IMG/VR virus record: IMGVR_UViG_2534681773_000025
Reading direction: 5' to 3' (one strand)
Source: a virus
Lineage: Duplodnaviria > Heunggongvirae > Uroviricota > Caudoviricetes
DNA length: 16,210 nucleotides
Positions 5,888-7,743 of this stretch are shown one piece after another; within the stretch, counting starts at the first letter, position 1; every line of letters begins with the position of its first letter. The notes below the pieces were generated by a model, which was given only the letters and a program-made list of their open reading frames with translations, was not told where the DNA came from and did no database searches. The position numbers were made by a program, and so were the translations under genes.

Positions 5888-5908
5888 AAAAAACCCGCCG
5901 AAGCGGGT
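5888..5908 (-). terminator. Rho-independent terminator with a UUCG tetraloop, copy B
   Basis: Minus strand: CCCGC-UUCG-GCGGG then UUUUUUGUUUUU, just 3' of the 368-aa gene. The 20-bp core aaaaacccgccgaagcgggt is identical to the copy at 7724..7743. Confidence 0.65.
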
Positions 5909-5912
5909 ATAC

Positions 5913-7019
5913 TCAAACAATCTGGAAAATATTTCTTGGATTTGTAATAGGTCTGTTGATGGAGAACAACTCACGAATTAAATCTTGGCTCAAGCCAGTT
6001 TTCATAAGAATTCTTAGCCAGGTTGCATCATCCAGCATTTCAATCGCCTCGGCCAGCATACCGGGTTCTTCAGGGCGCAAAAGTTCATCACCAGGTTCAA
6101 CTCTCGTATACCCTCTGGAATTAAGATGCATATAGCCAGTTCTTGCCTGTTCCTGGGTCAATAAGCCTAATGCGCTGGCTCGATAAATACACATTTTAAG
6201 GCTGATTTTCCATCTAAGTTTAAATTCAACCAGAGCATTCCAGTCGAATTGCTTACCTCGTATTCGTGGAAATTCTTTAATGAAAGATAACCTGGGAACT
6301 AATAAGGCGCTCGAAAAGTGATCGGCTTGTGATTCCGTAAGTTTATCACCTGTCGTTATGCCCTCATGCATTACTAAATGCCCTAATTCATGACCTAAAT
6401 CAGAGCGAAATCTACATATGCTTTTTTTAACATTGTTCCTGATGATAACAGGCCTGTTATTGTGAACAGTAAAAGCATCAACACGATCATCGACTCCCGT
6501 AACATGCGCAACGATTACCCCTAAACTCTCCGCCAATTTAACCATTGATGATATAGGGCCAAGACCTAAATTCCAGGCACGGCGACAATCTTCTGCCACT
6601 CGCTCAATATCATTCGGAGTAAGTAATTCAGCCCCTGGGTGCTCCGGTATGTTAACGTCAGGAAATTCGATTTCACCTTCAACAGCAGAAATTATAATAT
6701 TAAGAATCTCAGCCCTGGCCAATACACTATTAGTCAGCGTTTGAGTCCTGGACTTCTTACTCCGAAAATGGCAGACATCACTTTCCAGAGCGTATTTTCG
6801 TTCAGTAAAAAGAAAACTGGACTTAATCATAAGCGCTGAAGATATTAACTCAAGACATTGCTCCGATGGCCTGCACCCCTTCTCCAGTTTGCTAACGAAT
6901 TGCTTTGTCTTGCCAATTTTTTCGGCTAACTCTTCACAAGAAAGCCCAACAGCCATTCTCGCTAGTTTGAGCTTATCACCCCGATACTCAGTGAAGTTAT
7001 TCACCTGATGTTCCATCAC
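5913..7019 (-). CDS. XRE-family HTH fused to an ImmA/IrrE-type zinc metallopeptidase (HEXXH), with a ~100-aa C-terminal extension
   Basis: 368 aa. N-terminus LKLARMAVGLSCEELAEKIGKTKQFVSKLEKG is an XRE-type helix-turn-helix; the centre has LGHELGHLVMHEG (HExxH). Start is GTG 7019 or ATG 7016, overlapping the upstream ORF by about 20 bp. Confidence 0.8.
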   Translation of the reverse strand: MMEHQVNNFTEYRGDKLKLARMAVGLSCEELAEKIGKTKQFVSKLEKGCRPSEQCLELISSALMIKSSFLFTERKYALESDVCHFRSKKSRTQTLTNSVLARAEILNIIISAVEGEIEFPDVNIPEHPGAELLTPNDIERVAEDCRRAWNLGLGPISSMVKLAESLGVIVAHVTGVDDRVDAFTVHNNRPVIIRNNVKKSICRFRSDLGHELGHLVMHEGITTGDKLTESQADHFSSALLVPRLSFIKEFPRIRGKQFDWNALVEFKLRWKISLKMCIYRASALGLLTQEQARTGYMHLNSRGYTRVEPGDELLRPEEPGMLAEAIEMLDDATWLRILMKTGLSQDLIRELFSINRPITNPRNIFQIV

Positions 7020-7647
7020 TGCTCACATCCAAATCTTTATCCTTCGTACGCCGACGAAGAGGCACCTTATTAATCTCCGCTTCGTCAGGGAGTGTGTTAT
7101 AATCAAGAGGCATAAGCGGCATCGATGCTGTAGATTGATGAGAAACTATACTAATCTGAGCACCATAAGTATTAAATCCAACAAGAGCTACCTCCCAACG
7201 AGGCAGTGTGGACTCTAATTCACCATCGCCCTCTTCGGATAAAAAAGGCTCAGCTATGACTCGCCATGTAATATCTTGCTCAGCCTCAACATCACCAAAC
7301 AATGAGAGTTGCTCATACTCTACTTTATTTCGACGCAGACGATGTTTCTTTTTGGGGTTATTAATGCAATCTTTGGTAAATTGTAGCGGAACTTTATTTA
7401 AAGCAACTACATAGTCCAACCCCTTGGAAATCATCTCAAGGCCAGGAATTGCATCTTCATTTTGAATAAGATGATTTCTGACCCAATCATAAGCCCTTAC
7501 ACCTTCAGACCAGTTGCTGTCTAATGCGTGCTTATGATAGTACAGCTGCTCAAGTACGTTAGCGATCTCCGCCAACAAGTGGCGAACATAGTTTTCAGCA
7601 AGATAAGGTTGAAATTCCCAACAAGGAGCTAACTGATTTTCATTCAT
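6997..7647 (-). CDS. Hypothetical 216-aa protein with an acidic C-terminus, first gene of a two-gene operon with the HTH-peptidase
   Basis: ATG at 7647 with a weak ribosome-binding site; its stop overlaps the downstream start. No motif recognised. Confidence 0.55.
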   Translation of the reverse strand: MNENQLAPCWEFQPYLAENYVRHLLAEIANVLEQLYYHKHALDSNWSEGVRAYDWVRNHLIQNEDAIPGLEMISKGLDYVVALNKVPLQFTKDCINNPKKKHRLRRNKVEYEQLSLFGDVEAEQDITWRVIAEPFLSEEGDGELESTLPRWEVALVGFNTYGAQISIVSHQSTASMPLMPLDYNTLPDEAEINKVPLRRRTKDKDLDVSSDGTSGE

Positions 7648-7659
7648 TTCAAGTTTCGC

Positions 7660-7702
7660 TTTTTTTAGAATTCGTAAACCACATATTTTCGCATTTTTCT
7701 AT
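7660..7702 (-). promoter_or_regulatory. Candidate promoter for the 216-aa/HTH-peptidase operon
   Basis: A perfect TTGACA -35 hexamer on the minus strand (plus-strand 7697..7702), but only weak -10 candidates (AAATAT/TATGTG) at 17-20 bp. Confidence 0.3.
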
Positions 7703-7723
7703 TTTTGTCAACCAGACTAATGC

Positions 7724-7743
7724 AAAAACCCGCCGAAGCGGGT
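7724..7743 (-). terminator. Rho-independent terminator with a UUCG tetraloop, copy A (3' end of the hok transcript)
   Basis: Minus strand: CCCGC-UUCG-GCGGG then UUUUU. Same 20-bp sequence as 5888..5908. Confidence 0.6.

Follow-up and report, generated by a model that had tools for sequence, protein, structure and literature searches.

In a 16,210-nt stretch of viral DNA (IMG/VR record IMGVR_UViG_2534681773_000025; hereafter the window, in whose + strand positions all coordinates are given), a predicted RosmerTA toxin-antitoxin (TA) cassette stands directly behind the hok gene of a lambdoid prophage and is bracketed by two identical copies of a 20-mer, AAAAACCCGCCGAAGCGGGT, each of which has the form of a rho-independent terminator on the minus strand. 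A sequence-only reading of this DNA had drawn attention to the duplicated 20-mer and had taken it to delimit an inserted cassette; the duplication is confirmed by the analysis described here, and the interpretation is supported. Comparison with related prophages, with variants of the cassette at other positions and with other cargo at the same position establishes the anatomy of the unit, its empty sites, the possession of a terminator by the cargo itself and the reuse of the site. The feature is real, well delimited and basically an ordinary moron insertion, and it provides exact, sequence-defined borders for a RosmerTA cassette that about 4% of complete E. coli genomes contain. The recurring terminator-cargo-terminator architecture offers a testable and moderately interesting lead.

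The duplicated 20-mer and its empty site

A search of the whole window finds AAAAACCCGCCGAAGCGGGT on the + strand at two places only, designated T1 on the side of hok and T2 on the side of a rem-like gene (Table 1), and a scan of the window allowing up to three mismatches did not find a third copy. By chance, 0.01 copies would be expected, and none of 200 shuffled sequences reached two. The two copies, spaced 1,835 bp apart, are the sole exact direct repeat of at least 20 nt within the window, and the identity is confined to the 20-mer; the flanking bases differ between the copies (c/a at one end, a/t at the other). The sequence-only reading had placed the copy at 7724..7743 correctly and had begun the other one base too early, at 5888 instead of 5889.

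On the minus strand, both copies would form a stem of ACCCGC and GCGGGU closed by a UUCG loop and followed by five or six U residues, that is, a GC hairpin of 6-7 bp. Both were flagged as terminator-like by a terminator scan of the window, which overall did not rise above chance (five sites against 3.6 expected). Their folding energies are -10.9 and -15.1 kcal/mol, and the corresponding z-scores, -2.1 and -1.7, are modest. Form, position and conservation together indicate that both copies are probably terminators. T2 begins 4 nt past the rmrA stop codon and would close the rmrTA unit, and T1 is by position the terminator of the hok/mok transcript, which it adjoins in all 123 of the hok-terminator loci that were collected. 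The gene order and the strand agree with the earlier assignment of one closing terminator to hok and of the other to the inserted operon.

Both flanks of the cassette, though not the cassette itself, are matched by the PPompW phages, mEp460 and a Rac-like phage. In these relatives a single 20-mer joins hok directly to rem, the backbone gene that lies right behind the terminator, as had been predicted for cassette-less relatives from the sequence alone, and many IMG/VR loci likewise show one terminator between hok and rem. Because the empty sites have a single terminator, the insert amounts exactly to the cargo and one copy of the terminator (1,835 bp), and the cassette limits first proposed hold: the unit is well delimited by the two 20-mers. 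When the window's own flanks were joined to give a deduced empty site, which was counted as present if at least 80% of it was covered, a search of 5,426 complete E. coli genomes detected this site in 927, at identities of up to 96.2%.

The cassette itself was found in 237 E. coli genomes, in 224 of which it is at least 99% identical to that of the window. Plasmid matches to the cassette have the same hok/rem prophage context, and no match was obtained among the isolated phages of INPHARED, the distant mode of the search included. All copies of at least 99% identity remain identical for at least 106-169 nt past both terminators, and divergence begins within hok and rem. Breakpoints of recent spread at the terminators themselves were considered and rejected on this ground, the breakpoints being at least 106-169 nt away, inside the two genes. 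The shared flank beyond both terminators therefore shows that the copies of at least 99% identity stem from one insertion and were spread by ordinary homologous recombination, which took place in the flanks rather than at the terminators. The hok-rem intergenic region also gathers ordinary transposable elements: IS629 or IS3 is annotated inside the hok-rem stretch of LC567828.1, NZ_CM130730.1 and NZ_CP100906.1.

Reuse of the site behind hok and ownership of the terminators

Among the 123 collected hok-terminator loci, 15 carry cargo directly behind the hok terminator, and this cargo is of five kinds: the RmrTA pair of the window; a distant Rosmerta unit with an RmrA 43% identical; a second distant Rosmerta unit with an RmrA 32% identical; a Fic/Doc protein preceded by a small open reading frame (ORF); and a trio consisting of a helix-turn-helix (HTH) protein, an M78 peptidase and a small Cys-rich protein. 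These five kinds have nothing in common but the terminator, and all are co-oriented with hok. Every kind starts at base 0-1 past the U-run of T1 and ends in a copy of the terminator, which is exact in four of the five and has one changed loop base in the fifth. Behind T2, the backbone restarts at base 0 of the empty-site flank, whether this is of the rem type, the Rac-rem type or the orf92 type, and the Fic/Doc cargo is joined via T2 to at least six unrelated downstream flanks. The terminator is separated from the next gene by a spacer of 80-90 nt, across which the cargo joints do not scatter. Flush junctions with five kinds of cargo point to recombination at the terminator. In prophages of the Qin/Rac/Stx type, the hok terminator is directly followed by a reusable cargo slot; a search for an earlier description of a cargo hotspot at the hok terminator, or of a moron with a duplicated terminator, found nothing in the searchable literature, which is incomplete.

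The same terminator-cargo-terminator arrangement occurs away from hok (loci L265 and L412-414). A 94% variant of the cassette has the same cargo-terminator junctions in a backbone that lacks rem. One locus (L411, positions 1-3400 of IMGVR_UViG_3300036783_000353) holds a Rosmerta-like pair (222 and 365 aa), CCCGCTCCGGCGGGTTT, an HTH/M78/small-protein trio, an exact terminator and a rem-like gene. This is the sole tandem array of two cargos that was met, and its first hairpin is a loop variant of the terminator; a search for at least three strict copies in tandem found none.

The ownership of the two terminators can be read from cassettes of the window family (91-100% RmrA identity), which also occupy at least six other positions in lambdoid genomes. 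These positions include two dinI-adjacent nin sites, two borders between the replication and nin regions and the tail operon immediately before gene M; a position at the Q-lysis junction is known only from a 73%-identical relative. In all variants of 91-100% identity, rmrA is followed by ACCCGC-loop-GCGGGU, with seven different loops (TTCG, TACG, TATAT, CATTG, TGCTT, TGCAT and TTCAT). The A' Rosmerta family (43% identical) mostly bears CCCGC-TTCG-GCGGG outside the hok context, and the outermost pair of this hairpin swaps from A-U to U-A, with 13 AU, six UA, one GU and no unpaired case. As the A' hairpins were selected for five perfect inner pairs, the outer pair alone provides independent evidence of covariation. 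The conserved stem, the free loops and the covarying outer pair therefore point to a functional hairpin that is inherited with the cargo, and comparison of the variants shows that T2, as a putative terminator, belongs to the cargo and T1 to hok. An alternative in which T2 is imposed by the hok site could not be sustained, as the exact hairpin is present at non-hok sites in the A', B and C cargo families and in locus L267. At this last locus (positions 3250-5200), a 91% variant of the window cassette lies just upstream of a homologue of tail gene M and ends in the exact hairpin. Homologues of the Fic/Doc cargo are also found at tail-region sites (L335 and L348).

Proposed insertion at the terminator and alternative explanations

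The model that is favoured here, with moderate confidence, is that of a self-contained RosmerTA moron with two copies of a generic rho-independent terminator, which was inserted by short-homology recombination at the hok terminator and then spread by means of its flanks. In this arrangement, T1 would stop hok transcripts and insulate the cassette promoter, T2 would stop the cassette transcript and insulate rem and the genes downstream, as the sequence of the two elements suggests, and RmrA would probably autoregulate the conserved promoter region. The original insertion would have been a short-homology crossing-over between the terminator of the cassette and the nearly identical terminator of hok, possibly by way of a circular cassette-plus-terminator molecule, the junction of which would read rmrA-stop-gtat-T-gcattagtctgg-rmrT. 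Exchanges of cargo and of backbone at the hok site may have occurred through recombination between terminator copies, so that the terminator would act as a portable linker, as PeSL does in T4-type phages. The later step, which the data show, is the spread of the copies of at least 99% identity among prophages by homologous recombination in hok and rem, which took along flanks of at least 100-170 bp to either side. The sequence-only reading had offered two alternatives, entry by recombination at a terminator or a moron with a terminator copy of its own, and each is borne out in part: the cargo carries its own terminator of this type elsewhere, and the junctions are flush here.

Several observations weigh against this model. 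The insertions of the cassette at L260 and L268 have an unrelated hairpin upstream, and pairing between two terminator copies is therefore not required for insertion. The spacer of 17-22 nt that usually separates the rmrA stop codon from the hairpin is absent in the hok context, and a simple crossover inside the hairpin leaves its absence unexplained. The exact 20-mer occurs in at least 120 IMG/VR stretches with more than 100 different flanks or contexts. In a background sample of 1.5 Mb of gathered loci, which is biased toward such terminator sites and comprises 210 distinct terminator-like contexts, the CCCGC stem is present in 96 contexts (46%) and the exact hairpin in 35 (about 17%). With a 20-mer so generic, the identity of two neighbouring terminators is weak evidence for a duplication event, and neighbouring units could have it in common without ever having recombined with each other. 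The cargo families bear terminators of this kind elsewhere as well, and the exact copy at hok is not clearly set by the site. Finally, an isogenic empty site, with a backbone at least 99% identical and no cassette, was not found among the E. coli genomes, the best match reaching 96.2%.

According to the sequence-only reading, a motif ubiquitous in the genome would have spoken against its interpretation. This is half the case, the 20-mer being a very common phage terminator. Targeting of insertions by an upstream hairpin of the ACCCGC type, which is found in four of about eight other contexts, was considered and rejected, CCCGC stems being present in 46% of the sampled contexts. In 104 non-hok contexts of the 20-mer (within L007-L126), the bases past the T-run are biased to ATTGCCYGGAG (A at position 1 in 58%, T at position 2 in 72%, C at position 6 in 59%); GGAG lies within 16 nt of the T-run in 36 of the 104, and the start codons of diverse genes come next. 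A wider intergenic consensus of terminator plus ribosome-binding site is common to many apparently unrelated viral contigs, for which a mobile element, common descent and convergence are all possible explanations.

The commonness of the hairpin underlies the alternative that survives best, namely that the cassette came with its own terminator by illegitimate recombination in the manner of classical moron accretion, that selection kept the site behind hok, and that the terminator is idle in mobility. The two hairpins would then match merely as the commonest terminator of the phage gene pool, which the exact hairpin's share of the sampled terminator-like sites and its more than 100 unrelated contexts would allow. 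The presence of the hairpin in cargo families at non-hok sites and the unrelated hairpins upstream of some insertions of the cassette fit this explanation, and morons of the Hendrix type are thought to be mobile without conserved flanks (discussed in PMC2839356). It is nevertheless rather unlikely, because random joints that selection has filtered should scatter within a permissive spacer of 80-90 nt, whereas all five cargo kinds are joined at offset 0-1 from the U-run and are co-oriented, and T2 copies meet several unrelated backbone flanks at offset 0.

The polarity of the event could also be the reverse, with the occupied state ancestral and the single-terminator sites produced by deletion through recombination or slippage between the 20-bp repeats. 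Direct repeats of 20 bp around 1.8 kb are a classic substrate for deletion, the products would be identical to the empty sites that are seen, and excision between two terminator copies is the reverse of the favoured model. The distribution makes this order of events improbable: empty sites, present in 927 genomes at 80-96% identity, greatly exceed in number and diversity the one clone of at least 99% identity in 224 genomes, the copies of this clone share one haplotype block that extends into hok and rem and therefore points to a recent single origin, and other lineages carry different cargos at the hok site.

That an enzyme acting in trans (a transposase, an integrase or a hairpin-specific recombinase) made the 20-bp repeat as a target-site or att-core duplication would account for direct repeats that flank the insert exactly, for the recurrence of several cargos at one short hairpin and for the tandem array, but is very improbable: the cassette encodes no recombinase and lacks terminal inverted repeats, the downstream copy cannot derive from target duplication where a terminator of this type stands downstream of the cassette and an unrelated hairpin upstream, known target-site duplications are far shorter than 20 bp, and attC and dif sites are unlike a 16-nt perfect palindrome hairpin. 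A transposon is rejected, since rmrT and rmrA alone lie between the repeats, with no transposase and no inverted repeats at the ends of the cassette.

If the favoured model is extended beyond hok, the CCCGC-UUCG-GCGGG terminator might be a shared address for a pool of mobile defence and TA cassettes in enterobacterial lambdoid phages. The units would be excised as circles and re-inserted wherever a copy resides, be it behind hok, next to dinI, ahead of tail gene M or past Q, by short homology and with the help of Red, RecET or Erf-type enzymes. This extension is tentative; if true, it would amount to an integrase-free exchange system in temperate phages, similar to integrons or to PeSL, and could explain the over-representation of the hairpin in phage DNA. 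Terminators that act as recombination linkers would give a concrete mechanism for the "linker" exchange of Botstein and Campbell and for moron accretion, long-standing ideas that have been without a molecular joint in lambdoid phages. They would also provide a simple rule for finding accessory and defence genes, which is to search between two copies of the hairpin. If the terminators are not linkers, a tidy, ordinary moron remains.

The cassette, its neighbourhood and known systems

Table 1. Predicted genes and elements in and around the cassette, with the evidence for each
Feature	Position	Strand	Basis or detail
rem-like gene	5495..5803	-	annotated rem in PPompW, mEp460 and Rac-like relatives; alignment
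T2, downstream (rem-proximal) terminator copy	5889..5908	-	hairpin 5893-5908, U-tract 5888-5892
rmrA, HTH (XRE) + M78/ImmA-type metallopeptidase, predicted antitoxin/regulator	5913..7019	-	Pfam, PADLOC
rmrT, 216-aa predicted toxin partner	6997..7647	-	PADLOC RmrT PDLC03929, 4.6e-25
5' control region of the cassette, 76 nt	7648..7723	-	sequence; alignment of 12 variants in different contexts
T1, upstream (hok-proximal) terminator copy	7724..7743	-	hairpin 7727-7744, U-tract 7724-7727
mok/hok type I toxin gene (hok 7813-7968)	7813..8025	-	Pfam HOK_GEF 2.9e-23; annotated hokD
hok/sok regulatory 5' region, Rfam sok antitoxin match	7963..8137	-	RF01794, 114 bits, E 9e-26

The window is a lambdoid prophage of the DicA/DicC (Qin-like) kind with its early-right and nin genes on the minus strand, where the order is hok/sok, T1, the control region, rmrT, rmrA, T2, rem, a 92-aa ORF (orf92), a DUF968 gene, rusA and a Q-like DUF1133 gene. 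The hok neighbour has the parts of a hok/sok type I TA system, a Hok/Gef ORF, an overlapping mok and a sok region. RmrA has 368 aa from a GTG start, the RefSeq start being one codon later at 7016, and its matches to Pfam HTH_3 (5e-7) and Peptidase_M78 (6e-11) are accompanied by a PADLOC RmrA match across residues 12-351 (6e-105) and by a HELGH motif. The rmrT gene lies on the same strand and shares 23 nt with the start of rmrA; its product has no Pfam match. The G+C content of the cassette is 0.41-0.43 and that of rem is close to it (0.42-0.45), compared with 0.48-0.51 in the hok region and 0.54-0.58 in the DUF968 gene.

In the alignment of 12 variants, the homology common to all starts at GGTTGACA. 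The control region contains a perfect -35 element, TTGACA (7706-7711), which every variant has, and, after a spacer of 17 nt, a weak candidate -10 element, AAATAT (7683-7688); a consensus promoter scan of the window made no call in this region. The 75 nt upstream of rmrT, which were also compared in L256-L276, are better conserved than the proteins and are near-invariant where RmrT is 60-63% identical. The leader within the control region carries two GCGAAA(A/C) motifs at a distance of about 35 nt; they may serve as operators for the HTH domain of RmrA.

The window is 100% identical to DNA of E. coli O111:H2 strain 12A except for one insertion sequence (IS) at 11561-12874, because of which 8% of the window is absent from the strain 12A prophage. 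This IS belongs to the IS3 family (IS2-like), has imperfect terminal inverted repeats of 33 nt, carries an ORF with HTH_Tnp_1 (136 aa) and one with the rve integrase core (301 aa), and lies between a gene for a SMEK-domain protein and a DUF977 gene. Between hok/sok and DUF977, an island of low G+C content (8400-11300; 0.29-0.35 against 0.45-0.55 around it) encodes a 235-aa ORF without a family match, a class I SAM methyltransferase (219 aa, + strand) with a weak PADLOC mad2 match, and the SMEK-domain protein (299 aa, - strand). In PPompW phages its position is taken by paa/adfO, and the island is a candidate for a second accessory or defence cargo. On the minus strand, a match to the small RNA STnc100 (976-1166; RF02076, 138 bits) and three tRNA genes (1243-1492) for Arg-tct, Arg-tcg and a CAT anticodon (Met according to ARAGORN, Ile in RefSeq) lie downstream of the genes for a Q-like protein and a DNA methyltransferase, as in Stx-type phages.

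Several known systems invite comparison. Integron cassettes are modular units independent of a promoter, each ending in a hairpin-forming site, and are added serially at a fixed site. The tandem of two cargos with hairpins between them (L411) recalls this organization. It differs in having no integrase, in a perfect terminator hairpin of 16 nt instead of an imperfect attC of 57-141 nt, and in a separate predicted promoter for each cargo, and arrays are rare, a single one having been seen. The repeat of the window is a 16-nt perfect hairpin with an A-run (+ strand) and not an attC site, and no integrase-type gene was found in the 16-kb window except that of the IS3-family element. The transposase and terminal inverted repeats of a transposon are likewise lacking in the cassette.

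The hok site resembles the defence hotspots of P2-like prophages and P4-like satellites (Rousset et al., 2022, PMC9122126) in that anti-phage cargos interchange between conserved flanks at a fixed position of a temperate phage. The slot described here belongs to another phage group and lies behind hok in the nin region, and the P2 and P4 hotspots appear to be defined by conserved flanking genes and not by a duplicated 20-bp terminator.

The nearest precedent is the PeSL of T4-type phages, conserved stem-loop/promoter elements that bound optional genes, recombine with one another and give mini-circles (Arbiol et al., 2010, PMC2839356). In both cases, short stem-loop terminators border optional genes within plastic regions, insertion, deletion and replacement polymorphisms are bounded by copies of the element, and the route proposed is homologous recombination of these copies through circular intermediates, with no dedicated recombinase; at the hok site these polymorphisms comprise five cargos, the empty state and at least six flanks behind T2. 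In a PeSL, a conserved sigma-70 promoter is combined with a stem-loop, and the composite stands upstream of each ORFan, whereas here the terminator alone is shared and the sequence from T1 to the first gene, putative promoter included, is specific to each cargo. The hosts are temperate lambdoid phages instead of T4-type phages, the cargo consists of multi-gene TA or defence modules, and mini-circles are known from PeSL. The authors of PMC2839356 contrast PeSL with the morons of lambdoid phages, the regulatory sequences of which are not considered vehicles of mobility; if the linker role of the terminators were confirmed, the hotspot pattern would extend the PeSL and linker idea into temperate phages.

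Morons, a concept of Hendrix and Juhala (reviewed in PMC3594210), are matched by the cassette as an extra unit between two backbone genes that is precisely absent from collinear relatives, has a promoter-like element and what appears from its hairpin and U-run to be a factor-independent terminator of its own, and carries cargo useful to the lysogen. Classical morons have not been described with a duplicated terminator, whereas here the unit is flush with a resident copy at a site reused by five kinds of cargo. As for the cargo, RosmerTA is an experimentally supported TA defence family that combines an ImmA-protease/HTH antitoxin with diverse toxins, and toxin neutralisation and phage protection have been demonstrated for other members (PMC10440598). 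The cassette is a predicted member of this family: its RmrA combines an HTH at the N terminus with an ImmA/M78 protease domain, the adjacent RmrT, encoded in the same operon, has no known domain, and the pair is encoded by a phage. RmrT fits the PADLOC model moderately (4.6e-25), and nothing is new in the system itself. The cassette belongs, then, to two known kinds, the lambdoid moron and the predicted RosmerTA system, and it would work like a PeSL cassette yet falls outside the definition of PeSL.

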